64,000 bases of DNA from an uncultured Acidobacteriota bacterium. GTDB lineage: Bacteria; Acidobacteriota; Vicinamibacteria; Vicinamibacterales; 2-12-FULL-66-21. Of this stretch, positions 1,518 to 31,849 are shown piece after piece. The translations under genes and the position numbers were made by a program. How positions within the stretch are numbered: the first letter of the stretch is position 1; each line of letters begins with the position of its first letter. A model generated the notes under the pieces. It was given only the letters and a program-made list of their open reading frames with translations. It was not told the DNA's origin and did no database searches. The stretch lies in the NCBI GenBank assembly GCA_963764925.1, contig CAVXUR010000008.1, positions 147,624 through 211,623 on the forward strand, read 5' to 3'.

Positions 1518-1622
1518 CAGCTCTCAGCTATCAGCTCTCAGCTATCAGCTCAGAGCATTCAGAGCCTAGCCGCTCGGCTGCGTGGTGAGAGGTTTAGCTG
1601 ACAGCTGAAAGCTGTCAGCTGA
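1518..1622. repeat. heptamer-periodic inverted repeat (AGCTNTC)n ... (GCTGANA)n, copy 1
   Basis: The left arm is cagctctcagctatcagctctcagctatcagctcagagc (1518-1556) and the right arm is agctgacagctgaaagctgtcagctga (1596-1622). It lies between the rpsR stop and the rplI start. Confidence 0.85.
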
Positions 1623-1625
1623 TTG

Positions 1626-1931
1626 TCAATCTGTCACATACGGTACGAGCGCCAGCTGCCGCGCGCGCTTGATCGCGGTCTGGAGCTTGCGCTGGTGCAG
1701 GGCGCACGTTCCGGAAATCCGGCGCGGCTGAATCTTGCCTCGTTCAGGCAGGAACGGCGCCAGCAGCCGGACGTCCTTGTAGTTGATGTAGTCGATCTTC
1801 TCCGCGCAGAACTTGCACACCCGCCGGCGCCGGAAGAATCCGCCGCCACGGCGCGGGCCGTCCTTGTTCTTGTCCTTGTCGCCGCCTTTGCCGCCGCGAC
1901 CGCGTCCGCCTCCGCCACGTTCTTCGCTCAT
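1626..1931 (-). CDS. rpsR: 30S ribosomal protein S18
   Basis: ORF contains ...[60 protein letters not shown]. It overlaps the rpsF stop by 4 nt. Confidence 0.95.
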
Positions 1932-2389
1932 CGCTGGACCTCCATGCCGTCGCGATCGTCATCCATGTCCTGGTCGCCGCGCTTCTCACCCGGTGCCGGC
2001 TCCGGCGGCAGCCCGCGCGCAACCCGGCGCCGCGCCTGGTTGGCCTTGCGCGCGTCGCGCGTCCGATCGGCCACGCGAATCTCCTCGTCGACGCGGACGA
2101 CCAGATGCCGGATGACCTGGTCGGTCACGCGCAGCCGGCGATCGATCTCCTTCATCACGTCGCCTGACGTGCTGCTGATCGTCTCGACGACGTAGGTGGC
2201 TTCACGGTGATGCCCGATCTCGTAGGCAAGCTTCCGCCGGCCCCAGTTCTCGGTCTTGTCGAGGACGGCATTGGTGCTGCCAAACCGCTGGACGATCTGC
2301 TCGATCTGCGTGTGCAGATCGGCGACCTCCTGGTCCGACGCATCGGGTGTGATGAGGTAGACGAGCTCGTACTGTCTGCTTGCGCTCAT
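1928..2389 (-). CDS. rpsF: 30S ribosomal protein S6 (with an acidic/basic C-terminal extension)
   Basis: ORF reads [37 protein letters not shown]...[10 protein letters not shown]. It sits directly upstream of rpsR. Confidence 0.92.
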
Positions 2390-2422
2390 TGACTCTCCTT
2401 GTGGACTGATGGCTACCTTCGT

Positions 2423-2484
2423 AGCTATCAGCTCTCAGCGATCAGCTCTCAGCGGTTGCTGAAAGCTGACAGCTGAAAGCTGAC
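2423..2484. repeat. heptamer-periodic inverted repeat (AGCTNTC)n, copy 2, a tight hairpin
   Basis: The sequence is agctatcagctctcagcgatcagctctcagc, then a ggtt loop, then gctgaaagctgacagctgaaagctgac. It lies 40 nt downstream of the pth stop and upstream of the rpsF start. Confidence 0.88.
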
Positions 2485-2524
2485 GCTTCGGTAGCAAGGA
2501 GAAAACGAATGGTCTTCGTAGCTT

Positions 2525-3127
2525 CTAGCTTCTGTCTTCTTCCTTCTGACTTCTGTCTTCTTCCCTGTCTTCCCGCCGATTGAACCGATTCATCATCGGT
2601 TCGATGCCCTCGCTGACGAACACTTCGGCGGCATCAGCCGCCCGCGAAATCGCCTCGGACACGACCGCCTGCTCGTCGCGGTCGAACGTCGCGAGCACGT
2701 GATCGGCCAGGTCCCGTCGCCCGTCACCCCGGCCGACGCCGAACCGCAGCCGCGGGAACTGGTCGGTCCCCAGCTGCTCGATAAGCGACCTCAGCCCGTT
2801 GTGCCCCCCAGCCGACCCACTGCCTCGGGTCCGGAGGCGTCCCAACTCGAGCTGCACTTCGTCGACGATCACCAGCAGGTCGGCGATCTCGACCTTGAAG
2901 TACCGGAGCAGGTCGCCGACCGCAAAGCCGCTGAGGTTCATGAACGTCAGCGGCTTGACCACGAGCGTGCCAGCGCTTCGCCACTTGGCCATCAGCGCCT
3001 CGGCCGGTGCCGATTCCCACTGCAGCCCGTGCCGCTCGGCCAGAACATCGACAACGTCGAATCCGACGTTGTGCCGGGTGCCCGCGTACTTCCGACCCGG
3101 GTTCCCCAGTCCAACGACGAGCTTCAT
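2525..3127 (-). CDS. pth: peptidyl-tRNA hydrolase
   Basis: The conserved start MKLVVGLGNPGRKYAGTRHNVGF begins at ATG 3127. The 58 upstream codons of ORF 2525..3301 are Arg/Gly-rich shadow overlapping rplY, so they were trimmed. The C-terminal tail REEDRSQKEEDRS is encoded by a short tandem repeat. Confidence 0.9.
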   Translation of the reverse strand: MKLVVGLGNPGRKYAGTRHNVGFDVVDVLAERHGLQWESAPAEALMAKWRSAGTLVVKPLTFMNLSGFAVGDLLRYFKVEIADLLVIVDEVQLELGRLRTRGSGSAGGHNGLRSLIEQLGTDQFPRLRFGVGRGDGRRDLADHVLATFDRDEQAVVSEAISRAADAAEVFVSEGIEPMMNRFNRREDREEDRSQKEEDRS

Positions 3128-3132
3128 CGTTG

Positions 3133-3816
3133 CTATTCCGCGTCCTTCTCCTTGTCCGCCTTGCCCTTCTTGATGACTTCGGGCTCGGCGGGCGCCGCAC
3201 CTGGGGCCGCCGCAACCGCGTCGGCCGCCGGCGCCTCTTCCTCGACCTTCAGCGTCACGACGTGCACGATCATCATGTCGGCGTCGCTGACCGCGGTCCA
3301 CTTCACGCCTTCGGTGGGAAGGTCCCTGACCCGCACGCCCTGATTGAGCATCAGCTCGCTGACGTCGACGGTGATGTTCTCGGGAATGTCGCCCGGCAGC
3401 ACTTCGATCTCGACCTCGCGATTCACGAAGTCGACGATGCCACCCTGCTGCTTGACGCCCTTGGCCTCGCCCTTGAGGACGACCGGAACCGTGACGGTCA
3501 GCATCTTGTCCATCGCGACCTGATAGAAGTCGGCATGGAGCAGCTTGTGGTCGATCGGGTCGAGCTGATACTCCTTGACCAGCACCCGCGTGTCGCGGCC
3601 GGCGTCGGATAACCCCTCGAGACCGATGAGCGTGTTGACGCCCGATTCCGAGTGCAGGATCTTCAGCAGCGCCTTCGGATCGACAGCGATCTCGAACGCC
3701 TTCCCTTTCTCGGCGCCGTAGAGCACGGCCGGGATGCGTCCGCTCGCGCGCAGGCGGCGCGCCTCGTTCTTGCCTCGGGTCTCACGCTTCTCGAACTTCA
3801 GTGTTGCAGCGGCCAT
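3133..3816 (-). CDS. rplY: 50S ribosomal protein L25 / general stress protein Ctc
   Basis: ORF reads MAAATLKFEKRETRGKNEARRLRASGRIPAVLYG..., a long Ctc-type form with an Ala/Pro/Lys tail. It shows the pth-ctc-prs synteny. Confidence 0.9.
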   Translation of the reverse strand: MAAATLKFEKRETRGKNEARRLRASGRIPAVLYGAEKGKAFEIAVDPKALLKILHSESGVNTLIGLEGLSDAGRDTRVLVKEYQLDPIDHKLLHADFYQVAMDKMLTVTVPVVLKGEAKGVKQQGGIVDFVNREVEIEVLPGDIPENITVDVSELMLNQGVRVRDLPTEGVKWTAVSDADMMIVHVVTLKVEEEAPAADAVAAAPGAAPAEPEVIKKGKADKEKDAE

Positions 3817-3820
3817 AAAC

Positions 3821-3943
3821 CAGCTCTCAGCTTTCAGCTATCAGCTTTCAGCTCTCAACGAGCCCAAAGCCTACGTTGTTTCAGAACCCGCCATCCTGCC
3901 CGTGCGCTTCAGGCTGACAGCTGAGAGCTGACAGCTGAGAGCT
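3821..3943. repeat. heptamer-periodic inverted repeat (AGCTNTC)n, copy 3
   Basis: The left arm is cagctctcagctttcagctatcagctttcagctctca (3821-3857) and the right arm is gctgacagctgagagctgacagctgagagct (3913-3943). It lies between the prs stop (3948) and the rplY start (3816). Confidence 0.85.
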
Positions 3944-3947
3944 TCTG

Positions 3948-4895
3948 TTACACGAACAGCGAAGAAACCGACGTCTCCTCGTTGATACTCCGAATCGCCT
4001 GCCCCAGCAGGCGCGCCACCGACAGCTGGCGGATCTTCGAGCAGCTGCGCGCGCGATCCGAATGCAGCGGGATCGTGTTCGTGATCACCACCTGCTCGAT
4101 CGGCGCCGACTCCAGCCGCTCGACGGCCGGCCCGGAGAGCACGCCGTGCACGGCGCACGCGATCACCCGCTCGGCGCCATTCGCCTTGAGCGCGTTCGCC
4201 GCCTTGACGATCGTCCCCGCAGTGTCGATGATGTCGTCCTGGATGATGCAGGTCCGACCGGCCACATCACCGATCACGTTCATCACTTCTGCCGTCCCAT
4301 CGTCGCTACGGCGCTTGTCGATGATGGCGAGTTCCGCATCAAGACGCTTCGCGTAGGCACGGGCGCGCTCGGCGCCCCCGGCATCCGGCGAGACGATCGT
4401 GAGGTCGGGCATCCCGAGCCTCGCGCAGTACTCGATGATCACCGGCGCGGCAAAGAGGTGATCGACCGGAATATCGAAAAAGCCCTGGATCTGCGCCTTG
4501 TGCAGATCCATCGTCAGCACGCGGTTCGCGCCGGCGGCGCTCAGCAGATTCGCGACCAGCTTGGCCGAAATCGGCACCCGCGGCTTGTCCTTCCGATCCT
4601 GACGCGCGTAGCCGTAATACGGGATGACTGCCGTGATCCGCGACGCCGACGAGCGCCGGAACGCGTCCATCATCACGCACAATTCGACCAGGTGCTCGTC
4701 AACCGGCGCACAGGTCGGCTGCACGACGAAGACATCGGTGCCTCGAATGTTCTCGTCGATCTGGAACGAGACTTCCGTGTCCGGAAAACGCAGCAGCCTG
4801 GCCTGCCCCAGCTGGACGCCGAGGAACTCGCCAATCTCGGCGGCGAGCGCCCGGTGCGCGCTGCCCGAAAACAGTTTCAGCTGCCCGCGACTCAT
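3948..4895 (-). CDS. prs: ribose-phosphate pyrophosphokinase
   Basis: The protein MSRGQLKLFSGSAHRALAAEIGEFLG...DLHKAQIQGFFDIPVDHL...ends SVSSLFV. The start was set at ATG 4895 because the upstream part of ORF 3948..5012 runs antisense through the tRNA-Gln gene. Confidence 0.93.
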   Translation of the reverse strand: MSRGQLKLFSGSAHRALAAEIGEFLGVQLGQARLLRFPDTEVSFQIDENIRGTDVFVVQPTCAPVDEHLVELCVMMDAFRRSSASRITAVIPYYGYARQDRKDKPRVPISAKLVANLLSAAGANRVLTMDLHKAQIQGFFDIPVDHLFAAPVIIEYCARLGMPDLTIVSPDAGGAERARAYAKRLDAELAIIDKRRSDDGTAEVMNVIGDVAGRTCIIQDDIIDTAGTIVKAANALKANGAERVIACAVHGVLSGPAVERLESAPIEQVVITNTIPLHSDRARSCSKIRQLSVARLLGQAIRSINEETSVSSLFV

Positions 4896-4921
4896 ACCGT
4901 CGGCCTCGCGTGACTCAGGAC

Positions 4922-4996
4922 TGGTTGGGGCGGGAGGATTCGAACCTCCGAATACGGGATCCAAAGTCCCGCGCCTTACCGCTTGGCCACGCCCCA
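4922..4996 (-). tRNA. tRNA-Gln (anticodon UUG)
   Basis: The minus-strand sequence is TGGGGCGTGGCCAAGCGGTAAGGCGCGGGACTTTGGATCCCGTATTCGGAGGTTCGAATCCTCCCGCCCCAACCA. It has a 7-bp acceptor stem and an anticodon stem CGGGA/TCCCG with loop CTTTGGA. The T-arm is GGAGG-TTCGAAT-CCTCC and the CCA is encoded. The overall sequence resembles enterobacterial tRNA-Gln. Confidence 0.9.
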
Positions 4997-5147
4997 TCGG
5001 CCGGACGTCCACGGGAACTCCACAGTTGCTTTGCTTGCGACGGGCGCCGCCGAAGGCGCTCGCGTGCTTCAGCCTGGGCCTTGGGCGGGCGCTCGTGACA
5101 CGCCGCTCCTCAGGCGCGTCCCGCAGCCTGTCCGCAAAGGGCTAAGT

Positions 5148-6053: not shown

Positions 6054-6069
6054 GCGTTTGAAGGAGGCG

Positions 6070-8337: not shown

Positions 8338-8458
8338 CTACATGACTATAATGACGTCAGCCGGCCCGGTGACGCAAACGGCTTCTGGTATAGTGCAACC
8401 GCGACGACGCACGGCGAAAGCGCGGGCCCGCGAGCACGCGAGCAATTGAGAGAGGTTT

Positions 8459-8629: not shown

Positions 8630-8660
8630 CCCGAGCCGACGCCAGGCGCGCGGCAGACCC

Positions 8661-11013: not shown

Positions 11014-12003
11014 ATGCCGACGTTTCCCACCCTCGACAAGTTACTCGACCGCATCGGGGGACGTTCGATCCTCGTGATCGGCGACCTGATGGTCGATCAA
11101 TTCGTCATTGGCACCGTCGATCGCATATCGCCTGAGGCGCCGGTCCCGATTGTTCGGTTCGACCACGAGACCTGGCGACTCGGTGGCGCGGCCAATGTGG
11201 CCCACAACGTGGTGGCTCTCGGCGGACGCGTGGACGCCATCGGCGTTGTCGGCAGCGATCCCGACGGTGCGCGGCTGCTCGCCGATCTCGCCGGACGTTC
11301 GATCGGCACTGCGGGCATCATCAGCGATGCCTCACGATGCACGACCCGCAAGCTGCGAGTCGTGACGACCCGGAACCAGCAGGTGGCGCGAATCGATTAC
11401 GAGGGCGACAGCGACATCGATGCCTCGATCGAGGCGACCGTCGTGAGACGCATTGGCGAGCTGGCGGCTTCGGCGCAGGCAATCGTCATCTCCGATTACC
11501 TGAAGGGAGTCGTGACCTTGCAGGTCGCGTCGGCCGCTGCCGACGCGGCGCGGGCCCACCGAATTCCACTGCTCGTCGATCCCAAGGTTCCGCATATCGA
11601 TCGATATGCGGGCGCCACCGTGATTACGCCCAATCACCACGAGGCCGAGTCGGTGACGCACATGCGGATCCGGTCGGCGGCCGATGCGCGGGAGGCGGCG
11701 CGCCGGTTTCGGGAACGCGCGAACAGCGCCGCTGTGCTGATTACCCGCGGCGAGCACGGGATGTGGTTGCTCGGACCGGATGGCAAGAATGGTCCGGACG
11801 TCGAAATCGAGCTGCCGGCCGAAGCCCGGGAGGTCGCCGACGTGACCGGCGCCGGAGACACGGTCATCAGCGCCCTGGCGCTCGCAGCCGCCGCCGGGGC
11901 CTCGCTCGCCGACGCCGCACGGCTCGCCAACCGCGCCGCCGGGATCGTCGTCGGCAAGTTCGGGCCGGCGACCGTAACGGCGGACGAACTCAGACAGACT
12001 TGA
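11014..12003 (+). CDS. hldA: D-glycero-beta-D-manno-heptose-7-phosphate kinase (RfaE domain I, PfkB family)
   Basis: From ATG 11014 the protein reads MPTFPTLDKLLDRIGGRSILVIGDLMVDQFVIGTVDRISPEAPVPIV...DVTGAGDTVISALALAAAAG...AAGIVVGKFGPATV. No adenylyltransferase domain follows. Confidence 0.8.
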   Translation: MPTFPTLDKLLDRIGGRSILVIGDLMVDQFVIGTVDRISPEAPVPIVRFDHETWRLGGAANVAHNVVALGGRVDAIGVVGSDPDGARLLADLAGRSIGTAGIISDASRCTTRKLRVVTTRNQQVARIDYEGDSDIDASIEATVVRRIGELAASAQAIVISDYLKGVVTLQVASAAADAARAHRIPLLVDPKVPHIDRYAGATVITPNHHEAESVTHMRIRSAADAREAARRFRERANSAAVLITRGEHGMWLLGPDGKNGPDVEIELPAEAREVADVTGAGDTVISALALAAAAGASLADAARLANRAAGIVVGKFGPATVTADELRQT

Positions 12004-12108
12004 CCCAGGGATCAGGGATCGGGGATCGGGGGCATTAGCCTCGTCCTAACTCCCTGATCGTCAGACCTTGCCCCGGGCCCCTGATCCCCGCCCCCTGATC
12101 CCTGGGTC
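12003..12108. repeat. heptamer-periodic inverted repeat (GGGATCR)n / (YGATCCC)n
   Basis: The arms are acccagggatcagggatcggggatcggggg ... cccctgatccccgccccctgatccctgggt. It fills the gap between the convergent hldA and ArnT-like genes. Confidence 0.88.
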
Positions 12109-12112: not shown

Positions 12113-13810
12113 TCACGGCCCGCACTTGTTCGTCAGCAGCAGGATCTCCGGCAGCCGCTGGCGCGACAGCACGTTTCTCAGCTTCACGTCGAAGGTCGGT
12201 TGCGAGCGCACGCGGCAGAGCGGCGCCGATTCGGCTGGCTTGATCGCGCGCTCGTAGTCGTCTCTGGAAGCCATCAGGTACAGGGGGCGGCCGGTGCGCA
12301 GCAGCTCGATGACCGGGCCGTGATCGTAGAACACGTCGATGTGTCGACGGAGGTAGTAGACGAGGCTCGGCAGCGCGACGTTGTAGGTGACGATGATGTC
12401 GTCGGGCGTCGCGCGCTCCTTGAGGAGCGCGGCAAGCCCTGGCGCCGGCTTGTATGCTTCGAAGCTTGGCAGCACTTTCAGCACGAAAATCCAGTTGACC
12501 GCGATGAGCGCGCACGCGACGGTGACGAGTGCGGCGCCGATGCGCTGTCGAAGCGCAAGCACGATCGCAGCAGACCCGCCAGCGATCGCGATCGCTCCGA
12601 CGAACAGGGAGCCAGCCAGCACATACACGGCGAGCTCGCTGTTGAACAGGATCAGGAACCCTGCTCCGGCCACGATCAGCACGCCGCCGACGACGGCGGT
12701 GACGAGCTTGGTTCGCGCGTCAGCGGACCGTGATGCCGCGGCGCCCGCAATCACTACCGCTGCGAGCGCCACAATCGCCGGGGCGATTGGGTAGATGTAC
12801 AGGTCCTGTTTACCAGCCGAGAGCGAGAAGAATCCGACGATCCCCAGAATCCAGAGCCACAGCAGCGTCCGGATTCGACTCGCACCGTCAGTTGCCGTCG
12901 TCGCCTGGCGTCGTTCGCGGATCCAGAGCGCTGCCGCGGGAAAGAGAAAGAACGACCATGGGAACGAGTCGCTGAAGACGACCGGGAGGTACCACCAGAC
13001 CGGCCGGTCGGCGTTGACGCCAACGCCGTCCACATAGCGAGCGAAATTCTCACCGAAGACGAAGGACTTGATCGGGCCCCACCCCCACTGCTGATAGAGG
13101 GCGGCATACCACGGCACGACGATCGCCAGCACGATGACCGTTCCGAGCGGCACCAGCATGTCGCGGGCACGCCCCAGCTCGCGGTGGACCATCAGGTAGA
13201 TCGCAAACACCAGGCCCGGAAGCAAGGCGGCAATCGGGCCCTTCGTCAGGACACCGAGCCCGACGCAGACGTACATCAGGATCAGATACAGACGGCGTCT
13301 TGCGGGATACCGCTCCGCGAGCGCGAAAAACAGCAGCGTCAGCGCCATGAACATCGTAATGTAGATGTCGATGAAGATGCGACGGGCGAACATCAGCAAA
13401 CGCGGCGACACCGCAAGCCCGATCGCGGACCACCATGCCGCGGCCGCCTCTCGCCCCGCTGGCGCCGCCGCTCGAGCGAGAAAGAACGCCGTGACGATCA
13501 ACACCATCCCGCCAAGCGCGATCGGGACGCGCTGCACGCCAACCGACACGCCAAACAGGTGATAGAAGCCAGCAACGATCCAGTAGCTCAACACGGGCTT
13601 GTTGACGCGCGGCTCGTAGTTGAACATCGGATTGACGTAGTCGCCGCGCTCCATCATTTCGCGCGGCGTCTCGACATAGAACGCCTCGTTCGCGTCCCAG
13701 ATGGACGAACCGCCGAGATCGATGAAATACGGACAGACGGCGAGAAGAAGCAGCAGGCAATGCTGAATGCTGAGTGCTGAATGCTGAAGTGAAGGGCGAA
13801 GTGGCGTCAC
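12113..13810 (-). CDS. ArnT/PMT-family (GT-C fold) membrane glycosyltransferase
   Basis: This 565-aa polytopic ORF contains ...SSIWDANEAFYVETPREMMERGDYVNPMFNYEPRVNKPVLSYWIVAG.... The first ~17 codons (SLQHSALSIQHC) are encoded by the GCTGAAT repeat, so the true start is probably somewhat downstream. Confidence 0.78.
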   Translation of the reverse strand: MTPLRPSLQHSALSIQHCLLLLLAVCPYFIDLGGSSIWDANEAFYVETPREMMERGDYVNPMFNYEPRVNKPVLSYWIVAGFYHLFGVSVGVQRVPIALGGMVLIVTAFFLARAAAPAGREAAAAWWSAIGLAVSPRLLMFARRIFIDIYITMFMALTLLFFALAERYPARRRLYLILMYVCVGLGVLTKGPIAALLPGLVFAIYLMVHRELGRARDMLVPLGTVIVLAIVVPWYAALYQQWGWGPIKSFVFGENFARYVDGVGVNADRPVWWYLPVVFSDSFPWSFFLFPAAALWIRERRQATTATDGASRIRTLLWLWILGIVGFFSLSAGKQDLYIYPIAPAIVALAAVVIAGAAASRSADARTKLVTAVVGGVLIVAGAGFLILFNSELAVYVLAGSLFVGAIAIAGGSAAIVLALRQRIGAALVTVACALIAVNWIFVLKVLPSFEAYKPAPGLAALLKERATPDDIIVTYNVALPSLVYYLRRHIDVFYDHGPVIELLRTGRPLYLMASRDDYERAIKPAESAPLCRVRSQPTFDVKLRNVLSRQRLPEILLLTNKCGP

Positions 13811-13900
13811 TAATTCGCCATTGCCTCATTCGTCATTTCAATTCCCGATTCACCATTCTTCATTCACTTCAGCATTCAGCATTCAGCATTCAGAATTGAG
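13759..13900. repeat. heptamer-periodic inverted repeat (GCTGAAT)n / (ATTCAGC)n
   Basis: The left arm is aatgctgaatgctgagtgctgaatgctgaagtgaag and the right arm is cttcattcacttcagcattcagcattcagcattcagaattgag. The spacer is also 7-nt periodic (ATTCNNN). A lone half-site gctgaatgctgaag recurs at 37833-37846. Confidence 0.88.
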
Positions 13901-13911
13901 AAGTGCAGGCC

Positions 13912-15505
13912 TTAGTGCCTGAAGTGTCGCCTTCCTGTAAAGACCATCGTCAGGCCGCGCTCGTCCGCGGCTGCGATGACTTCGGCGTCGCGGACCGATC
14001 CGCCGGGCTGCACGATGGCGGTCGCGCCGGCCTCGGCCACCGCGTCGAGACCGTCGCGGAATGGAAAGAACGCGTCGGAAGCAGCGACTGAGCCCGAGAG
14101 CGCCCCGGCGGCAGCTTTCATGACTGCGACCTTGACCGCGTCGACGCGGCTCATCTGTCCCGCGCCGACGGCCAGCGTTCTGTCAGTGCTGGTAAAAATC
14201 ACGGCGTTCGACTTGACGTGACCGCAGACGCGCCACGCGAAGCGAAGCGCCATCCACTCTTCGGGAGTCGGCGCGCGGTTGGTCACGACCTTCGGGAAAT
14301 CATCGTGCGGCCACGCCGTACGCGCCTCCGTCACGACATCGCGGTCCTGCATCAGCATGCCGCCAAGGAAGCTCCGCGCATCCCGGGCGAACTCGTTGTC
14401 GAGTGCGGCCAGCTTGGCGAAATCTACGGTCGCCACGCGGAGATTCGCTTTCGTCGCCAGGATCGGCTTGGCGTCCTCGTCCACGGCGGGCGCGATCACG
14501 GCCTCGATGAACGTGGACGTCAACGCACGCGCGGTCTCGCCGTCGAGCGTGCGGTTGAGGCCGACGATGCCGCCAAACGCCGACAGGGGATCGGCCTCGC
14601 GCGCTCGCACGTACGCCTCGGCAATCGTCGCCCCCAGGGCCACGCCGCACGGGTTGGTGTGCTTGATGACGACACCGACCGGCTCGGGAAATTCGAGCGC
14701 AATCCGGAGCGCGGCGTCGAGATCGAGCAGGTTGGTATACGACAGCTCCTTGCCTTGATGAATCTCCCAGCCTGGCAGCGACGGCCCCACAGTATTGGCG
14801 GGGGGCACCCATTGCGCCTTCTGATGCGGATTCTCGCCGTATCGCAAATCCTTCGGCGCCGGATGCGACGTCGGAAGCGCGGACCGCGTCATCGCTCCCC
14901 CGGCAAAGTCGACGCTGTGTAGCGTGACCGCGATCATCCCGTCGTACATGCCGGTGTGGTCGAACGCCTTCTGCATCAGCTTGAATCGAAACGCCGGCTC
15001 CGGTCCGCCGGCCTGCGCCAACTGCTCGAGCACTTGCGAATAGTCCGCACGGATCGACGACGACGAGCACGTCGCGGAAATTCTTGGCCGCTGCCCGCAC
15101 CAGGCTCGGGCCGCCGATGTCGATCTCTTCAACGAGCGCATCGAATGGCGTGTCGGGGTTCTGAGCGGCCTTGGCAAAGGGGTATAGGTTCACCACAACG
15201 AGGTCGACCGGAGTAATCCCGTGGCGGCCGATCGCCTCGAGGTCGTCCGGGCGGGATCGGCGCGCCAGGATGCCGGCGTGGATGGCCGGGTGCAGGGTCT
15301 TGACTCGCCCGTCCATCATCTCGGGAAAGCCAGTCACGTCGGAGACGCCAACGACCGGGAGACCGGCCGCCGCGAGGGCCGTCGCGGTGCCACCGGTCGA
15401 GACGAGTTCGACCCCGAGGGCAGCCAGGCCCCGGCCAAGCTCAGCCAGTCCGGTCTTGTCCGAAACACTCAAAATTGCTCGCATATTTGTCGATTTACTT
15501 GACAT
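13912..15505 (-). CDS. purH: bifunctional AICAR transformylase / IMP cyclohydrolase (frame disruption ~15058)
   Basis: ORF 14300..15505 ([33 protein letters not shown]...[22 protein letters not shown]) joins ORF 13912..15177 ([10 protein letters not shown]...TGRRHFRH) when one extra base in gatccgTgcggac is skipped. Confidence 0.93.
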
Positions 15506-18645: not shown

Positions 18646-18813
18646 CTCACCGCCGAGGGCGCTGAGCCCGCCGAGAAAGACTAGCGAATATCTCATGACT
18701 CGTAGTGTTCACCCTTCGGCGGACCCCTAACAGGTCCGGCTGAAGCCGGACACTACGCCTGAGAGACTGCAAAACTCTCTGCGTTCTCGGCGATCCGCGG
18801 TGAAAGGCTTTTG
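18646..18813. repeat. nested composite palindrome made of two REP-like families
   Basis: The outer arms are ccaaaagcttctcaccgccgagggcgctgagcccgccgagaaag and ctctctgcgttctcggcgatccgcggtgaaaggcttttg. The inner arms are cgtagtgttcacccttcggcggac and gtccggctgaagccggacactacg. It lies between the convergent selA and nuoN genes. Confidence 0.85.
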
Positions 18814-18844
18814 CCGCAGGAGGGCTTCCGGAGGGAGGCGCAGA

Positions 18845-20279
18845 TCAGAAGATCGTCGAGATCGAATCGAGCGCCAGCGCGATGATTCTCGCTGGCAGCA
18901 CGCCAAGGTAAATCACTGCCAGAGTGGCGAGTGCCAGGCCGGCGGCCGCCGGGAGCGGCACTCGAGGACGCACGATATCGCTGCCGTCGGTCATGTACAT
19001 CATGACGACGATACGCAGGTAGAAGAAGACCGACACGACGCTCGTCAGGACACCGATGATCGCCAGCCAGTAGTGGCCGCGTTCGACCGCAGCGCTGAAG
19101 ATGTACCACTTGCCGATGAAGCCGGCCATCGGCGGGAAACCTCCCAGCGACAGCAGGAACACCGTCATCAGGGCGGCGAGCCCCGGCCGCGATTTGGACA
19201 ACCCGGCGAAGTCTCTGAGCTCGTCGTGCTCGTGCTGGGCAGTGCCGAGCAACGCGACGATTCCCAGCGCGCCGAGATTCGACACGGCATAGGCCAGCAG
19301 GTAGAAGAGCACCGCCGCCTTGCCCGTGCTCGTCGTCGAAATCAAGCCGAGGAGCAGGTAGCCGGCGTGCGCAATGCTCGAATAAGCCAGCATCCGCTTG
19401 ATGTTGCTCTGCACGACGCCGACGACAGTCCCGAGAATCATGGTCGCGGCGGCAATGACCACCAGAACCGGAATCCACTGATCCTGCATTGGCTCGAGCG
19501 GCGACAGGAACACGCGGACAAAGGCGGCAAACGCCGCCGCTTTCACTCCAGTGGACATGAACGCCGTCACGATCGTCGGCGCCCCTTCGTACGCGTCGGG
19601 CGTCCACATGTGGAACGGCACCGCAGAAACCTTGAAGGCGAAGCCGACGACGAGAAGGCCTACCGCCAACAGGGACATGATCGACGGCTGCGCGGCGCCC
19701 TGCGAGGAGAGGACGGCGCCGAGCTCGTCGAGTCGAGTCGAGCCCGACAACGCAAAGGCGAAGGCGACGCCGTAGAGAAAGAACGCGCTCGAGAACGCCC
19801 CGAGCAGAAAGTACCTTGAAAGCGGCTTCCGCGCCCGCCGCGCTCGATCGACGGATGCCGGTCAAGACGTAGACCGAGAGCGACAGGATCTCGAGTGCCA
19901 GAAAAATCACCAGCAAGTCGGTCGCCGCCGCCATCAGCATCATGCCGCTGATAGAAAAGAGCGTCAGCGCGTAGTACTCGCCAGGGGGCAGCCGCTCGCG
20001 CTCGACAATCTCGTCCGAGAAGAGCATCGTCAACACACCGACGACACAGAGGACGAGGTTGATGAAGAGAGCGAAGTTGTCGGATCGGACGACGCCGAAG
20101 CTCTGGGCGTCGCTGCCCCAGAGGACCACCGACGCGACCGCTGCGCCGACCAGCCCGATGAGGCCGAATCCGGCAATCGGCATCCGCTCGCCGCGCTGTC
20201 GGAACGCCTCGGCAATCATGGCGGCGCAGCCCGCCAGGACAACGATGACGATCGGGATGATGGCAGCGTAGTCGCTCAT
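18845..20279 (-). CDS. nuoN: NADH-quinone oxidoreductase subunit N (frame disruption ~19815)
   Basis: The fragment MSDYAAIIPIVIVVLAGCAAMIAEAF...GAEAAFK joins YFLLGAFSSAFFLYGVAFAFALSGSTRLDEL...FHMWTPDAYEGAPT... when one extra C in ttcaagGtacttt (minus sense) is skipped. Confidence 0.92.
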
Positions 20280-20290
20280 GGTCTCTGTTC

Positions 20291-20708
20291 GGCCTGCCGC
20301 GCCGGAGCGCGGCTGTTCTCTGCGCGCGAAGGTGCGCTCGCGGTTCGCGGCTCGCGGTTCGCAATGGGCGGTTCAACGGTCTGAGCTCGCGGTTCGACCT
20401 GCCGCGCCGTAGCGCGGTTGGTCTCTCCGCGCGAAGGCGGGGCCTGCCGCGCCATAGCGCGGTTGCTCTCCGCGCGAAGGCGGGGCCTGCCGCGCCGTAG
20501 CGCGGTTGGTCTCTCCGCGCGAAGGCGGGGCCTGCCGCGCCGTAGCGCGGTTGGTCTCTCCGCGCGAAGGCGGGGCCTGCCGCGCCGTAGCGCGGTTGGT
20601 CTCTCCGCGCGAAGGCGGGGCCTGCCGCGCCGTAGCGCGGTTGATCTCTCCGCGCGAAGGCGGGGCCTGCCGCGCCGTAGCGCGGTTGGTCTCTCCGCGC
20701 GAAGGCGG
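20291..20708. repeat. tandem array of a 45-bp unit GGCCTGCCGCGCCGTAGCGCGGTTGGTCTCTCCGCGCGAAGGCGG
   Basis: Five near-identical 45-bp copies lie at 20484-20708. A 43-bp copy (20441-20483), a 44-bp copy (20397-20440) and a degenerate copy (20291-20334) are also present. A GCTCGCGGTTCG x3 stretch lies between the last two. Each unit contains the palindrome CCGCGC-cgta-GCGCGG. Confidence 0.9.
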
Positions 20709-22229
20709 GCGATCGTCGATGCGTACGCGAACCGGCTGATTGGCTGTGACCCGCTCGATCAGCCGCGTCACCGACGGTTCCATCGGTCGAAGGAAAATGC
20801 CAGGGACAACACCCATCAGGATCGCCATCGCGATCGTCGGCACGACGAGCGCCCATTCGCGCGGCGTCAGGTCTGGCAAGGTGCGGTTCTTCTCGTTGGT
20901 GATCGGCCCGTAGTTCACGCGCTGGAACATCCACAGCATGTAAACGGCCGAGAGGATGACGCCGGTCGCGGCCAGCGCGGCGAGGGTCGGACTCCAGCGG
21001 AACGCGCCGACGAGAATCAGGAATTCGCCGACGAACCCATTCAGCCCCGGCAGCGCGATCGAGGACAGGGTCACGATGAGGAAGGCGGCGACGAGCCGAG
21101 GCGTCACCGATTTGAGACCGCCGAACTCGGAGATGAGCCTCGTGTGCCGCCGGTCCGAGAGCATACCGACGATCATGAACAGCCCGCCGGTGCTGACGCC
21201 GTGGTTCAGCATCTGGTAGAGCGAACCCTGGACACCCTGCAAGTTCATCGCGCAGAGCCCGAGGACGACGAAGCCGAGGTGGCTGACGCTCGAGTACGCC
21301 ACCAGCTTCTTCATATCGGGCTGCACCATGGCCACCAGAGCGCCATAGATGATACCGATCACGGCAAGCAACGCGATGATCGGGGCCATGGCCAGGGCTG
21401 CGCCCGGAAAGAGCGGAAACGCAAAGCGCAGCAGGCCGTAGGTGCCCATCTTCAGCAGCACGCCGGCAAGGATGACCGACCCGGCCGTGGGCGCCTCGAC
21501 GTGCGCGTCCGGCAGCCAGGTGTGAAACGGAAAGAGCGGCACTTTGATGGCAAAGGCGACGGCGAACGCCAGGAAGAACCAGCTTTCCATCCGGTCCGAG
21601 AGCGCCAGGCCGTAGAGATCGAGCAGGTTGAAACTCGGCGTCCCGGTGCCGCTGGCCTCGGCGTGCGCCCAGGCGAGGCCGATGATCGCGATGAGCATCA
21701 GCACGCTGCCGGCCATGGTGTAGAGGATGAACTTGATCGCCGCGTAGATGCGCCGCTCGTATCCCCAGATCCCGATCAGGAAGTACATCGGGATGAGCAT
21801 CGCGTCCCAGAAGATGTAGAAGAGAAAGAGATCGATCGAAACGAAGACGCCGAGCATCGCCGTCTCGAGCGCGAGCACGAAGAACGAAAACAGCTTCACG
21901 CTCTTGTGCACCGACTCCCACGAGGAGAGCAGCGCCAGCGGCGTCAGGAAGCCGGTCAGCACGAGCAGAAACAGGCTGATCCCGTCGACACCGATCAGAT
22001 ATTGAATCCCGAACATCGGCATCCAGGCGTGCGTCTCGACGAACTGGTAGTCGGCGCTGGTCGGGTCGAAGCGCCACCACAGGACGAGCGTCGCGGCAAA
22101 CGTCAGGAGCGACGTCGCCAGCGCGATGTTGCGCACCAGCGGTTCGCGCTCGGGTCGGTCGCCGCGGCCGCCGGCCAGAAGCGCCACAATCGCGCCCACG
22201 AGAGGAAGAAAGACGATTAGCGAGAGCAT
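20373..22229 (-). CDS. nuoM: NADH-quinone oxidoreductase subunit M, with a ~113-aa C-terminal tail encoded by the 45-bp array
   Basis: The protein MLSLIVFLPLVGAIVALLAGG...FHTWLPDAHVEAPTAGSVILAGVLLKMGTYG... has its conserved part ending near ...VRVRIDDR (about 20709). It then continues as (PPSRGETNRATARQA)x5. No stop occurs in any minus frame before 20373. Confidence 0.9.
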   Translation of the reverse strand: MLSLIVFLPLVGAIVALLAGGRGDRPEREPLVRNIALATSLLTFAATLVLWWRFDPTSADYQFVETHAWMPMFGIQYLIGVDGISLFLLVLTGFLTPLALLSSWESVHKSVKLFSFFVLALETAMLGVFVSIDLFLFYIFWDAMLIPMYFLIGIWGYERRIYAAIKFILYTMAGSVLMLIAIIGLAWAHAEASGTGTPSFNLLDLYGLALSDRMESWFFLAFAVAFAIKVPLFPFHTWLPDAHVEAPTAGSVILAGVLLKMGTYGLLRFAFPLFPGAALAMAPIIALLAVIGIIYGALVAMVQPDMKKLVAYSSVSHLGFVVLGLCAMNLQGVQGSLYQMLNHGVSTGGLFMIVGMLSDRRHTRLISEFGGLKSVTPRLVAAFLIVTLSSIALPGLNGFVGEFLILVGAFRWSPTLAALAATGVILSAVYMLWMFQRVNYGPITNEKNRTLPDLTPREWALVVPTIAMAILMGVVPGIFLRPMEPSVTRLIERVTANQPVRVRIDDRPPSRGETNRATARQAPPSRGEINRATARQAPPSRGETNRATARQAPPSRGETNRATARQAPPSRGETNRATARQAPPSRGEQPRYGAAGPAFARRDQPRYGAAGRTASSDR

Positions 22230-24670: not shown

Positions 24671-24673
24671 CGC

Positions 24674-25210: not shown

Positions 25211-25214
25211 GTCC

Positions 25215-27553: not shown

Positions 27554-27576
27554 TGTTTACACAATCACGCTGCATC

Positions 27577-27676
27577 CGTGATCACGACGCTCGTCACGAA
27601 GAGCACGATCGCACGATGAGCACGAAGAAACCGAGTTAGGCATCGTGTCCTTCGTGTCATCGAGGCCTTCGTGATC
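27577..27676. repeat. imperfect inverted repeat built from CACGA / TCGTG short periodic units
   Basis: The arms are gtgatcacgacgctcgtcacgaagagcacgatcgcacgatgagcacgaag ... catcgtgtccttcgtgtcatcgaggccttcgtgatca. It lies between the nuoE stop and the nuoF start, and is less regular than the TCAG heptamer family. Confidence 0.55.
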
Positions 27677-27684
27677 AAGCCGTG

Positions 27685-28287
27685 TCACCGTTCGACGTCC
27701 AGATGACATCCGCTGAACACCTTGTCGCCCTTCGCGCGGATCTCGTCAACCAGCGTCGCCGCGTCCTCGGGCCGCACCTTCTCGTGCCAGTGCTCGTTGT
27801 TCACCATCACGATCGGCGCGCGATCGCAGGCGCCGAGGCACTCGAATTCCATGAGCGTAAAGAGCCCCGACGCGTCCGTCTCGCCGACCTTGATCCCGAG
27901 CTTGTCGGAAAGCGCTTCGGTCACGCGTTCGGCGCCCATCAGCGCGCACGACAGCGTCCGGCACACCTGGAGCACGTACTTGCCGACTGGCTCCCGGTAG
28001 AACATCACGTAGTAGGTCGCGACGTCCTCGACTTCGGCGGGTGTCATGTCGAGGATGCCGGCCACGTGGCGCATGCCGTTGGCCGTGAGGTAGCCCTGCT
28101 GTTCCTGGACCAGATACAACGCGCCGAGAATCGCCGAGCGCTTCTGGTCGGACGGATACTTCGTCAGCATCTCGTCGAGCGCCGCGCGGCGCTCGGGTGT
28201 GAAGGTGAACGCCGGACCCTCGTCGACGACCTTGCGCTCCGACTTCTGAAAGCGCTGGTCGTAGACCATCAGCGGATGAAAGCTCAT
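27685..28287 (-). CDS. nuoE: NADH-quinone oxidoreductase subunit E
   Basis: This 200-aa ORF contains ...VCRTLSCALMGAERV...EFECLGACDRAPIVMVN (2Fe-2S cysteines). Confidence 0.93.
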   Translation of the reverse strand: MSFHPLMVYDQRFQKSERKVVDEGPAFTFTPERRAALDEMLTKYPSDQKRSAILGALYLVQEQQGYLTANGMRHVAGILDMTPAEVEDVATYYVMFYREPVGKYVLQVCRTLSCALMGAERVTEALSDKLGIKVGETDASGLFTLMEFECLGACDRAPIVMVNNEHWHEKVRPEDAATLVDEIRAKGDKVFSGCHLDVER

Positions 28288-29468: not shown

Positions 29469-29471
29469 TCG

Positions 29472-30056
29472 TCACACCATCTCTACAATTTCGCAAATCG
29501 CATGAATCAGCGTGATGTGGACTTCCTGCACGCGCGCCGTGCAGTCGTCCGGCACGTTGATGTGGACCTCGGCCAGGCGCCCGGCTTCCCCGCCGTCACG
29601 ACCGGTCAACGCGATGGTCCGCAGCCCGCGCGCCCGTGCCGCTTCAAGCGCGGCAAGCACGTTCGGCGACGCGCCGCTCGTCGAAATTGCAAATGCGACG
29701 TCGCCGGCCACACCGAGCGCATTCACCTGACGCGCGAATACCTGCTCGAAGCCGTAGTCGTTGGCCACGCTGGTCAGCAGGCTCGTGTCCGCCGTCAGCG
29801 CCACTGCCGCCAACCCCGGCCGCTCCTTCTGAAAACGTCCGACGAGCTCGGCGACGAGATGCTGCGCATCCCCGGCGCTTCCTCCGTTGCCGAACGCCAG
29901 CAGCTTGCGACCGGAGCGAAGCGCGCTGGTGATGGTCGAGGCCGCCGTGGCCACTGCCGTCAGATCGAGGCCTCGCACGCGACGGTGCGCATCGATGGCT
30001 GCGTCGAGCGTGCGCCCCACAATCGAAACCGCGCCGCCGATATCGCTCGACGGCAT
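29472..30056 (-). CDS. gmhA: SIS-domain D-sedoheptulose-7-phosphate isomerase (GmhA-like)
   Basis: From ATG 30056 the protein reads [24 protein letters not shown]...KLLAFGNGGSAGDAQHLVAELVGRF...AISTSGASPNVLAALEAARARGLRTIALTGRDGG...QEVHITLIHAICEIVE. The ATGA overlaps the nuoC stop, and its own stop lies 3 nt from the nuoD start. Confidence 0.8.
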   Translation of the reverse strand: MPSSDIGGAVSIVGRTLDAAIDAHRRVRGLDLTAVATAASTITSALRSGRKLLAFGNGGSAGDAQHLVAELVGRFQKERPGLAAVALTADTSLLTSVANDYGFEQVFARQVNALGVAGDVAFAISTSGASPNVLAALEAARARGLRTIALTGRDGGEAGRLAEVHINVPDDCTARVQEVHITLIHAICEIVEMV

Positions 30057-30629
30057 CAGTCCGGCCGTGCCCGCCGCCGCGCCGCCTCCATGTTGGCGAC
30101 GAACTCGTCCTCCGAGACCTGCAGCGGTTCGTAGGTCTTCACCCGCTGATTGATCTGCACCGGGTAGTCTTTCCGCATCGGGAAGCCTTCCCAGTCCTCG
30201 GGCATCAGGATGCGGCGCATGTCCGGATGTCCCTCGAAATGCAGGCCAAAGAAGTCGTAGACCTCGCGCTCGCCCCAGTTCGCTGCCTGCCAGACGCTCG
30301 ACGACCGACGGCACGCTTGCCGCCTCGGCGACTCGCACTTTCAGCCGCAACCGCTTGGGAGTCTCGCCGTAACCCGCGACGCCCGGACACGCCAGAATGT
30401 ACAGGACCTCGTACCGCGGGTCGCGCGGATGATAGTCGACCGCCGTCACATCCGCGAGGAAGACGAAGCGCAGCTCGGGCGCGTCGCGCAGAACCCGACA
30501 GGCGTCGATCAGCAGGTCGAGCGGGGCATAAAACGTCGGCATGCCGTCGCGCGATTCCACGACTTCGAACCTCGTGGCATCCGCCGGCAGGGCGCGTGAC
30601 AGGACCTCGATGATGGCCGTCGCTTGCAT
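30056..30629 (-). CDS. nuoC: NADH-quinone oxidoreductase subunit C (frame disruption ~30300)
   Basis: The fragment [36 protein letters not shown]...[18 protein letters not shown] joins [46 protein letters not shown]... in the next frame. In the ORF track the N-terminal half is fused to gmhA as a single ORF, 29472..30629. Confidence 0.9.
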
Positions 30630-30661
30630 GGAACGTAGTGTTATCCCTGGCTAGCCGTATT

Positions 30662-30716
30662 CGTAGTGTCCGGCTTCAGCCGGACTCGCGATGGTCCGCC
30701 TAAAGGCGGACACTAC
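30662..30716. repeat. inverted pair of the GTAGTGTCCGSC-loop-GSCGGAC REP-like hairpin
   Basis: The two copies are cgtagtgtccggcttcagccggac (30662-30685) and gtccgcctaaaggcggacactacg (30693-30716). A partial cgtagtgtt lies at 30634-30642. The element sits between the nuoB stop and the nuoC start, and the same family occurs at 18701-18757. Confidence 0.85.
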
Positions 30717-30735
30717 GGAGTTGATGAGATAGCCT

Positions 30736-31215
30736 CTAAACGAACGACCTCTGCTTGTCGATTTTCCGCTGGAGTTGGACGATGCCGTAGATGAGCGCCT
30801 CGGGACGGGGCGGGCAGCCGGGCACGAAGACGTCGACGGGCACGACCTGATCGACACCCTGCACAATCGCGTAGTTGTCGAAGACTCCGCCAACCGACGC
30901 ACACGCTCCCATCGAGATGACGTATTTCGGCTCGGGCATCTGATCGTAGATGCGGCGCAGCACCGGGGCCATCTTGCGCGACAGACGTCCGGCCACAATC
31001 ATCAGGTCGGACTGGCGCGGGGATCCGCGGAAGACCTCGGCGCCGAAGCGCGCGATGTCGTAGCGGCCGGCGCTCATCGCCATCATCTCGATCGCGCAGC
31101 ATGCGAGGCCGAAGGTGACCGGCCAGACCGACGAACGCCGCGCCCACTGGACGATTTTCTCGACGCTCGTGGTCAGGAAGGGCAGATCGTTGGGAATTTC
31201 GATGTCGTCGCTCAT
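30736..31215 (-). CDS. nuoB: NADH-quinone oxidoreductase subunit B
   Basis: This 159-aa ORF contains ...[15 protein letters not shown]...[10 protein letters not shown]...[10 protein letters not shown] (N2 cluster cysteines). Confidence 0.95.
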
Positions 31216-31230
31216 AAAGTATTCGAAAAA

Positions 31231-31597
31231 CTACGCGCGCTCGTGTCCCCAATCGAGCACGCCCTTGCGCCAGACGTACACGTTACCCCGTCAGCAGGAT
31301 CGCGAAGAACACCAGAATCTGCACGAATCCGGTCCAGCCGAGCGACCGCAGCGCCATGGCGAACGGATAGAGGAACGCTACCTCGATGTCGAAGAGCAGA
31401 AAAATCATCGCCACGAGGTAGAACTTGACCGGATGCCGTTCGCGGGCATCGCCGACCGGTGGCATGCCACATTCGTAAGGGGCGAGCTTTTCTGGGGTCG
31501 GCTTGCTGGGACCGATGAGATGCGAGGCGAGGATGTTGAACGCCCCGAACCCGGCCCCGAGCCCGATCATGATGAGGATAGGTACCCAGCCGTGCAT
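31231..31597 (-). CDS. nuoA: NADH-quinone oxidoreductase subunit A (frame disruption ~31285 near the 3' end)
   Basis: ORF 31283..31597 (MHGWVPILIMIGLGAGF...PYECGMPPVGDARERHPVKFYLVAMIFLLFDIEVAFLYP...) stops at ILLTG. The conserved C-terminus VYVWRKGVLDWGHERA then continues one base out of frame to the TAG at 31233-31231. Confidence 0.88.
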
Positions 31598-31740
31598 GTT
31601 TTTAGGTCAATCAGCAGCGGCTTGTGAATGTTTTCTCAAGCCGGTCGCAAAAAAAGCGCGTCGCCACCCGACGCGTCTCCAAGGCCCAGGCGCCTCCGTC
31701 CGCGCCATTCTGAGCACCGAAATGCTATCACAGCGGACGC

Positions 31741-31849
31741 GGGTTCAGGGTTCAAGGTTCAGGGTTCAGGGTTCAGAATTCACGGTCGAAGGCCCGGGTT
31801 TGAACCTTGAACCATGAACCCTGAACCATGAACCCTGAACCCTGAACCA
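31741..31849. repeat. heptamer-periodic inverted repeat (GGGTTCA)n / (TGAACCC)n
   Basis: The arms are gggttcagggttcaaggttcagggttcagggttcagaattca ... gtttgaaccttgaaccatgaaccctgaaccatgaaccctgaaccctgaacc. It lies in the divergent region between the nuoA and GT4 starts. Confidence 0.88.

Follow-up and report, generated by a model that had tools for sequence, protein, structure and literature searches.

The sequence analyzed here, hereafter called the window, is a 64-kb stretch of Vicinamibacterales (Acidobacteriota) DNA from a single genome. Six of its intergenic spacers carry an element of the same build, namely, two arrays of 7-nt units that are inverted and reverse-complementary to each other. 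The arrays were identified by reading the sequence and with Tandem Repeats Finder (TRF), of which rows with at least 3 copies were counted here and below, and gene context was fixed by protein-family scans. The initial annotation of this DNA had described six loci in which both arms of a potential hairpin consist of tandem heptamers. All six were recovered in place, with 3 to 7 units per arm and stable predicted folds. They are listed below with their predicted RNA folding energies.

1518-1622, YCAGYTN hairpin between the minus-strand genes rplI and rpsR (rplI <- rpsR; rpsR stop at 1626, rplI start at 1502); arms 1518-1551 and 1596-1622, loop of about 45 nt; TRF arrays 1518-1550 and 1596-1622; -52.2 kcal/mol, z -3.2

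2423-2484, YCAGYTN hairpin between the minus-strand genes rpsF and pth (rpsF <- pth; pth stop at 2525, rpsF start at 2389); arms 2423-2454 and 2458-2484, loop of 3 to 4 nt; TRF arrays 2423-2453 and 2458-2483; -52.4 kcal/mol, z -9.2

3821-3943, YCAGYTN hairpin between the minus-strand genes ctc and prs (ctc <- prs; prs stop at 3948, ctc/L25 start at 3816); arms 3821-3857 and 3913-3943, identical to the TRF arrays; -65.5 kcal/mol, z -5.6

12004-12106, GGGATCR hairpin filling the spacer between the stops of a convergent pair, a plus-strand hldE-domain-I-like kinase gene (stop at 12001-12003) and a minus-strand ArnT-like gene (stop at 12113-12115); arms 12004-12032 and 12071-12106; TRF array 12006-12031, partner 12071-12106 read by eye; plus strand -72.6 kcal/mol, minus strand -77.4 kcal/mol

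13759-13902, GCTGAAT/ATTCAGC hairpin between the minus-strand genes for the ArnT-like protein and purH (ArnT-like <- purH; purH stop at 13912, ArnT-like start region on the other side); arms 13759-13788 and 13848-13902; TRF arrays 13759-13788 and 13848-13897; -64.9 kcal/mol, z -7.3

31741-31850, GGGTTCA/TGAACCN hairpin between the divergent genes nuoA (31283-31597, minus strand) and GT4 (start at 31861, plus strand), its 3′ end 10 nt ahead of the GT4 start codon; arms 31741-31786 and 31801-31850; TRF arrays 31741-31776 and 31801-31848; -70.9 kcal/mol, z -9.5

Across the six loci, folding energies ranged from -52 to -77 kcal/mol (z scores of -3.2 to -9.5), and at most 1 of 200 shuffles folded as well as the real hairpin. 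The window holds 14 period-7 TRF rows, compared with 0.5 per dinucleotide shuffle. All of its arrays are intergenic except for an unpaired one at the 3′ end of pth, and the placement of the elements just past stop codons was confirmed.

Stable stems just past stop codons, in one case between convergent genes, would suit Rho-independent terminators or attenuators between housekeeping genes. However, neither the tails of the window elements, which were read, nor a terminator scan revealed a U-tract or T-run after the stems; the scan returned no site at any element and stood at background overall (11 sites versus 9.7 expected). Three of the elements lie inside the ribosomal-protein cluster (rpsF-rpsR-rplI and pth-ctc), where the spacers of many relatives measure just 5 to 30 nt, and yet another lies between divergent genes, ahead of a start codon. 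The elements thus do not have the makeup of Rho-independent terminators. We regard this function as very unlikely, and the initial annotation had itself doubted a pure terminator role. In a comparison of bases 1 to 40000 with Rfam 15 at the gathering score, no family matched the elements, the only match being a tRNA gene at 4925-4996 (minus strand).

Period-7 arrays and unit families across the Vicinamibacterales

The window was compared with 82 related loci (numbered with the prefix L), which brought the total to 1.45 Mb. They were gathered by two look-ups and one scan of species-representative genomes. The L25 protein has thousands of near homologues, of which those with a name belong to the Vicinamibacterales. 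Between 20 and 64 kb of sequence was at hand per genome. The gene order prs-ctc-pth-rpsF-rpsR-rplI is common to all 82 loci, and four of them (L001, L002, L003, and L018) are 93 to 95.5% identical to the window across 14 kb. Arrays were considered paired if a reverse-complement partner array lay at most 300 nt away, and coding or noncoding status was assigned by strand-free calls. Home-made gene calling based on GC content at third codon positions, applied to tandem, convergent, and divergent spacers, was dropped; among reference genes, it named the correct strand in only 15 of 22 and 9 of 12 cases. A metagenome scan for population variants of the prs-ctc spacer with the degenerate loop pattern AACGTAGGCTYNNRGCYCG gave, among the matches listed, a single relevant one (L189), the others being unrelated.

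In the combined sample, TRF called 424 arrays of period 7, compared with 103 of period 6, 62 of period 8, and 84 of period 9. Inverted pairing was likewise concentrated at period 7, where it involved 187 of 435 arrays (43%). Among arrays of period 6, only 2 of 129 had a partner, and the numbers for periods 8 and 9 were 24 of 84 and 10 of 137, respectively. Equal abundance inside genes, which would speak against the single-family idea of the initial annotation, was not observed: 82% of period-7 arrays are noncoding versus 27% of period-6 arrays, with about 78% of bases located in coding-like open frames. Among inverted period-7 pairs, 105 of 112 are noncoding. Outside the prs..rplI cluster the density amounts to about 210 arrays and about 31 strictly defined pairs per Mb; the higher density inside it is partly an ascertainment effect, since the loci were picked around a gene cluster already known to carry the elements. 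The feature is real, nonrandom, and lineage-wide. No description of these repeats in Vicinamibacterales was found in the literature searched.

The hairpins have a common anatomy. Two inverted arrays of about 4 to 7 heptamers form a stem of 25 to 40 bp that is interrupted at about every seventh position. Arm lengths (median, 31/33 nt; interquartile range, 30 to 38 nt) are correlated between the 5′ and the 3′ side (rho = 0.40), paired arrays are a median of 33 nt apart, and the arms are 86% Watson-Crick complementary (105 pairs). In three spacers of known reading direction, the stem starts a median of 4 to 5 nt past the stop codon and ends a median of 10 to 17 nt ahead of the next start codon, thereby extending from the stop to the ribosome-binding site (RBS) or start. 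In several species, the stop codon TAG itself opens the first unit (TAGCT…). An extreme hairpin, (CAGTCGN)x21/(CGACTGN)x20, was seen between convergent genes in L008 (1768-2061). The prs-ctc spacer of L014, L038, and L046 (about 185 to 240 nt) is filled by inverted arrays of 8-nt units, GACGTGCT and GCACGTAG.

About 138 distinct heptamer units were counted among the arrays. The YCAGYTN family makes up 131 of 353 noncoding arrays (37%) and includes the three window loci with TCAGCTN units. In 47 of its pairs, six unit positions are mismatched between the arms at frequencies of only 1 to 14%, whereas at N the two arms disagree in 70% of cells, close to the random value. The first Y is polymorphic (C in 90 and T in 97 cases) and is matched in the opposite arm at 96%. 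With six positions paired and N free, the stems are successions of 6-bp helices parted by one usually unpaired position. Variation is gathered in one column of the unit in other families as well (0.59 versus 0.48 expected; P = 1e-4). Of 52 YCAGYTN pairs, 51 have the pyrimidine arm on the 5′ side and the purine arm on the 3′ side, whereas the polarity of the other families is unbiased (16 versus 25).

This asymmetry extends to arms that differ in length or lack a partner. Among YCAGYTN motifs in the three sense-known spacers, the purine arm, which is next to the downstream start, occurs alone in 25 cases and the pyrimidine arm alone in 2. In unequal pairs, the 3′ arm is the longer one in 35 of 49 (versus 14; P = 0.003), a bias confined to this family. 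Unpaired arrays at most 30 nt ahead of a coding-like start read as purine in 9 cases and as pyrimidine in 2. These orientation counts, which are phylogenetically nonindependent, suggest rather than prove a role of the purine arm in translation initiation.

According to the initial annotation, all six loci belonged to one family defined by a TCAG core. This view was sustained only in part, as TCAG is not a defining core. A true family is made up by the three TCAGCTN loci alone, better written YCAGYTN, and the other window loci belong to separate unit families. TCAG is present in 31% of 339 independent noncoding arrays from relatives and absent from 69%, and AATTGCC, CACGACG, GGTTCCA, CGCGAAG, CAGTCGN, and AGGCTCN are among the many other units from which hairpins of this kind are made. 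TCAG is enriched about 2.3-fold. It was counted in 20 of 137 distinct units (8.3 expected) and, outside the CAGYT family, in 15 of 124 (6.8 expected; P = 0.003), although most arrays do without it. The enrichment arises largely via the YCAGYTN family and its one-step neighbors and does not define the class. The array reported as TCRGGGA at 12003-12108 is present, but just about half of its units carry TCAG (TCAGGGA, as opposed to TCGGGGA and TCGGGGG). The left-arm unit TCAGCTC is identical to a 16S rRNA segment that we take to be universally conserved, presumably a chance 7-mer match.

Turnover at orthologous spacers, known systems, and candidate origins

The initial annotation had proposed to look for slippage by comparing orthologous spacers, and single-unit indels between relatives of 95% identity were indeed found. 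The elements of the window are 97% identical to those of L002 and L018 and differ from them by single-unit indels, including one of 7 nt at prs-ctc; the element at 1518-1622 is near-identical in both genomes, one unit-length indel apart. Gain and loss of whole units is expected from slippage. The 14-nt super-repeats found in arrays are 100% identical, which points to what would be recent two-unit duplications. Orthologues of the 2423-2484 element are carried by L001 and L002, and an element orthologous to that at 13759-13902 is present in L064 and L017.

Whole alleles are also exchanged between near relatives. L001 and L003 (93 to 94% identity) have wholly different alleles at prs-ctc and S18-L9, with CCAGCTT in both arms and a different loop. 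In the convergent hldE/ArnT spacer, the arrays differ entirely among relatives of 93 to 95% identity, and the arrangement changes in nearly each relative, as follows.

Window: GGGATCR pair

L003: (GGCGTTC)x10 plus (CGACTGN)n

L018: GGGGCTC plus GACTGNN

L008: (CAGTCGN)x20 pair

L004, L006, L009, and L059: AGGCTCN pairs

The S18-L9 spacer, compared in 76 loci, is shorter than 45 nt in 34 and contains a strong hairpin in 36, with units that are unrelated between species; the element is therefore dispensable at that site. At prs-ctc, hairpins of the YCAGYTN type are kept by most Vicinamibacterales, including relatives whose L25 identity is as low as 68%, in the lineage-typical variants TCAGCTN, CCAGCTT, and CCAGTTT.

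Heptamer arrays of this sort have precedents. Mrazek et al. (2007, in the summary given in PMC4679880) found intergenic heptanucleotide repeats to be over-represented in general. In Xanthomonas, (GGGANTN)n arrays consist of about 4 units, are 89 to 93% intergenic, lie a mean of 28 nt from the upstream open reading frame (ORF), form 70 to 75 inverted pairs, and are conserved in position between species but variable in length (Rehm et al. 2015, PMC4692102). The window elements are of the same kind as the inverted Xanthomonas pairs, in a new phylum and with new units. They, too, consist of at least 3 to 4 head-to-tail 7-nt units at a frequency above chance, lie between genes near the end of the upstream ORF, occur as convergent pairs, and keep their position while changing copy number by whole units. 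The resemblance extends to the unit, in which one or two positions are free and the core is conserved, to the typical array size of about 4 units, to an intergenic share of about 90%, and to the many convergent stem-loop pairs. The elements differ from the Xanthomonas repeats in that their host is an acidobacterium, in that many unit families coexist per genome whereas a single family was studied in Xanthomonas, and in that the hairpins run from the stop codon up to the next RBS or start. The initial annotation was aware of no mechanism that generates such arrays. Neither Mrazek et al. (2007), to the extent of the summary in PMC4679880, nor Rehm et al. (2015, PMC4692102) establishes one, but the repeats and their inverted pairs had already been described.

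G-quadruplex or i-motif structures have been proposed for the GGGAATC repeats of Xanthomonas, oligonucleotides of which form G-quadruplexes in vitro (PMC4692102). The G3-tract unit specific to Xanthomonas and Nostoc is found at only two window loci, 12004-12106 (GGGATCR) and 31741-31850 (GGGTTCA), whose G3 tracts are 7 nt apart; TCAGCTN and GCTGAAT lack it. Since the dominant YCAGYTN family is devoid of G tracts, as are four of the six loci, the quadruplex reading is not transferable from Xanthomonas. The complementary arm moreover favors a duplex hairpin, and we consider such structures highly improbable as an account of the class. A purine-arm variant, AAGCGGG or (GGGAAGC)n, has G3 tracts every 7 nt and is one base off GGGAATC. 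It recurs in L001, L003, L024, L025, L031, L044, L045, and L059 and accompanies a sense-strand excess of G.G over C.C oppositions (26 versus 7).

We favor, with some confidence, the view that the elements are transcribed simple sequence repeat (SSR) hairpins of this known heptamer class, which evolve by slippage and act, if at all, at the RNA level. Because of their location within operons, they would be transcribed as part of operon mRNAs, in which they are predicted to fold into interrupted duplexes of 25 to 40 bp. Such duplexes are of the type that serves as RNase III substrate and as a barrier to 3′ exonucleases, which makes both of them candidate roles. With one arm at the upstream stop codon and the other at the downstream initiation region, coupling, gating, or occlusion of downstream translation may be a further one.

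The heptamer repeat in the 5′ untranslated region (5′ UTR) of hmw in Haemophilus influenzae is the only heptamer-repeat hairpin that has been dissected experimentally. It forms a long RNA hairpin whose cleavage by RNase III raises expression, and changes in repeat number need transcription, the hairpin, and RNase III (PMC12721329). The present elements resemble it in that a heptamer array right upstream of a gene, here presumably transcribed, forms an arm of a long RNA hairpin and shifts in repeat number by whole units. In hmw, however, only the left arm is repeated and the right arm is a G-rich region, whereas both arms are arrays here. Furthermore, hmw is a phase-variable adhesin locus, while the elements described here occupy housekeeping spacers.

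Repetitive extragenic palindromic (REP) elements, which are mobilized by RAYT transposases, are another point of reference. Their placement near stop codons is said to affect the upstream gene in some cases, reportedly in work by Liang, Rudd, and Deutscher from 2015. REPs and the bacterial interspersed mosaic elements (BIMEs) share with the window elements that they are abundant, short intergenic palindromes just past genes inside operons. REPs are, in the description available from PMC3733652, single palindromes of 20 to 40 nt with a GTAG or CGTC head; when transcribed, they are structured obstacles to exonucleases (PMC12320835). The arms of the present elements are tandem heptamers instead, and their sequences, when read, had neither head. 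If processing of the hairpins or gating of translation by them were borne out, Acidobacteriota would have in them an equivalent of both REP elements and the Haemophilus hmw hairpin.

Several points weigh against an RNA-level reading of slippage-evolving hairpins. Any such function is something that we infer. Spacer RNA was more stable in the sense direction in 100 cases and in the antisense direction in 44 (P = 5e-8), but random coding segments are biased likewise (240 versus 143), so this test does not discriminate. The excess of G.T over A.C oppositions in known-sense hairpins (52 versus 27) is confounded by G skew, as is evident from the G.G and C.C counts given above. About half of all arrays are unpaired, and the nonindependence of the orientation counts has been mentioned. 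Pure slippage also leaves three things unaccounted for: the sharing of units within a genome (63% versus 18% between genomes), the fixed polarity of YCAGYTN (51 versus 1), and the unpaired N.

The elements might alternatively be neutral or selfish palindromic microsatellites at the DNA level. Heptamer slippage, as a general bias of bacterial replication, would expand both arms of short palindromes that were already present, and template switching inside the palindrome would keep them complementary, without a function of their own. Spacers would put up with the hairpin since stop and start codons stay next to each other at its base. This fits the filled or empty state of S18-L9, the 138 distinct units, the unit-length indels between near relatives, the rapid turnover of unit type at one spacer among genomes of 93 to 95% identity, and the failure of the sense-strand tests to discriminate. 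Heptamers are, besides, the commonest long SSRs in many bacteria (Mrazek et al. 2007, via the summary in PMC4679880). Yet six of the seven positions are held at 86 to 99% while N drifts, and template switching would correct N too. The persistence of YCAGYTN at prs-ctc down to 68% L25 identity, its fixed polarity, and the preferential retention and greater length of the start-adjacent arm also argue against neutrality. The 97% identity of elements in 95%-identical relatives means that they diverge no faster than their flanks. On this evidence, we hold a purely neutral origin to be possible but doubtful.

Transposition is the other DNA-level process that was weighed. In non-autonomous mobile elements of the miniature inverted-repeat transposable element (MITE) or foldback type, terminal inverted repeats made of subrepeats would be transposase-binding sites, and insertion would have occurred between the stop codon and the RBS. 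Genomes do have preferred units: two elements in different spacers have a unit in common in 63% of cases within a genome and 18% between genomes (odds ratio, 7.6; P = 1e-13). YCAGYTN keeps its polarity at several nonorthologous spacers, and GCTGAAT, the unit of the window element at 13759-13902, recurs with the same polarity at a nonorthologous spacer of L026. Filled and empty spacers are sharply bounded, and arms and loop are replaced together as whole alleles between genomes of 94% identity. Against mobility, the loops of same-unit copies are unrelated, both within and between genomes and also in the L026 case, and neither a target-site duplication nor a conserved terminal sequence was found. 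No duplicated flank was seen in filled versus empty S18-L9 spacers, where the terminal repeat units make short duplications hard to exclude. A separate recognition would be needed for each of more than 100 unit types, about half of all arrays lack a partner, and the unit indels and perfect 14-nt super-repeats point to growth in place. The elements consequently do not classify as MITE or foldback elements, and a mobile origin appears unlikely. Integron attC sites and CRISPR were considered and dropped without formal tests, given flanks of syntenic housekeeping genes in 80 genomes and arrays without spacers.

In many bacteria, no long microsatellites are more common than heptanucleotide repeats, for which neither a function nor an origin is generally agreed upon. 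The Vicinamibacterales offer an unusually rich natural experiment, with dozens of unit families, spacers filled in one species and empty in another, allele replacement at 94% identity, and one dominant, fixed-polarity family built of a hexamer plus a free base. Together with the start-adjacent arm, these features of the comparative set make the role of intergenic heptamer repeats more directly amenable to testing.

The purine arm and the downstream gene

In mRNA sense, the purine arm of the window element at 3821-3943 stops 4 nt short of the L25 ATG, and in the sample it comes within 4 to 10 nt of this start (…GAGAGCTGG TTT ATG; …GCTGGAAGCA ATG). Upstream of L25, there is no Shine-Dalgarno (SD)-like sequence other than the purine arm. 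The 3′ purine arm of YCAGYTN (N-A-R-C-T-G-R) probably doubles as an SD-like region for initiation on the downstream gene.

A related idea is that the arrays are bound by a factor with sequence specificity, either the ribosome or an RNA-binding protein of, for example, the cold-shock or S1 type. Here, each site would comprise a hexamer and one spacer base, with the purine arm (ARCUGR-N)n as the functional portion and the complementary arm as a regulatory anti-sequence. The hexamer-plus-free-N architecture, the retention of the purine arm beside the start codon even when the opposite arm is missing, and the lack of a separate SD sequence between this arm and the L25 ATG accord with it. So do the TAACTGA repeats of marine Beggiatoaceae, cyanobacteria, and Bacteroidetes, which occur as 169 direct sets and one indirect set (MacGregor 2015, PMC4679880). 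Read as AACTGA-T, they fit the purine-arm consensus ARCTGR-N. They share with the units found here the position just upstream of starts, which in their case have no canonical RBS (PMC4679880). This resemblance may be due to chance, a match of about 1 in 70 per published heptamer, of which several were compared. The TAACTGA repeats are almost always direct, without a complementary arm, and have an exact unit, whereas the family here is degenerate; its units AGCTGAN, AGCTGGN, and AACTGGN are one base from AACTGAT and mostly have a complementary partner arm, which places them outside the TAACTGA group. The binding-site proposal, moreover, applies only to YCAGYTN (37% of arrays), as the units of the other families are unrelated and their polarity is unbiased, and a candidate factor was not identified. 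We judge it improbable as an explanation of the elements.

A bolder version would make the YCAGYTN hairpin an order-wide, fixed-polarity element. Its 3′ purine heptads (A-R-C-U-G-R-N)n would be an SD-independent, repeat-based initiation or standby signal for translation, gated by the 5′ arm, which ribosomes terminating on the upstream gene would open. The TAACTGA arrays of the three groups named above would rely on the same signal. This is speculative, and we attach little credence to it. If true, it would indicate that mRNA motifs with a 7-nt period are read by a conserved factor associated with the ribosome.

Other repeats in the window and gene-call artifacts

In addition to the six hairpins, two further arrays and one remnant are present in the window. 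The two arrays had been overlooked; the remnant had been noted as a lone half-site at 37833-37846.

2514-2572, minus strand, unpaired array of GAAGACA/GAAGTCA/GAAGGAA, period 7 and 21, including the pth stop codon

20336-20362, TCGCGGT array, period 7/14 (100% at period 14), adjoining a 45-nt REP-like array, between that array and the nuoN start

37831-37846, plus strand, remnant of a GCTGAAT array with two units left (ATGCTGA x2; TRF array 37831-37845), just past the stop of an 829-aa methyltransferase/Wzy_C ORF (35337-37826)

As the initial annotation had remarked, the repeats disturb ORF calls. Since arrays are open in several frames, gene calling in metagenome-assembled genomes of high GC content goes wrong at them, with the Pth tail and the start of the ArnT-like ORF as cases. 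The array at 2514-2572 is translated as the last 17 or so residues of Pth, a charged C-terminal tail (window 2528-2572) that ends in …RREDREEDRSQKEEDRS before the stop codon. Pth with this repeat-encoded tail is called at 200 aa in L001 and L002. The tail is kept in relatives of 94% identity, and more distant orthologues do not align across it. At the ArnT-like gene (window 13751-13810, minus strand), homology starts at the edge of the array, and L064 has TTG where the window and L017 have CTG. Since the sole canonical in-frame start, a GTG at 13810, is part of the hairpin loop, the annotated N terminus would be translated from the repeat. The tRNA gene at 4925-4996 (minus strand; 68.6 bits in Rfam) is directly upstream of prs, from which it follows that the 354-aa prs ORF (3948-5012) is over-extended into the tRNA.

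In some species, GTAG-tagged REP-like palindromes replace the heptamer hairpins in the S18-L9 spacer (at about 12.1 to 12.3 kb in each locus). This is the case for L014, L046, and L020 (all with GTAGCGCAGCCCTTCAGGGCTGC) and for L025, L031, and L042 (all with GGTCCGGCTGAAGCCGGACGCTAC), which makes S18-L9 one niche for two unrelated types of hairpin element. The window has a REP-like array as well. It spans 20282-20709 and consists of eight tandem 45-nt units, six of them 99 to 100% identical, each with a GTAG-headed REP-type palindrome (GTAGCGCGG…CCGCGC). The minus-strand genes at this site are nuoM (20373-22229) and nuoN (18753-20279), and the reading frame of nuoM stays open across the array. 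The NuoM C terminus would gain about 110 residues of a 15-aa repeat (PPSRGETNRATARQA x6); the nuoM ORF comprises 618 aa, and the Pfam domain Proton_antipo_M ends at residue 424.

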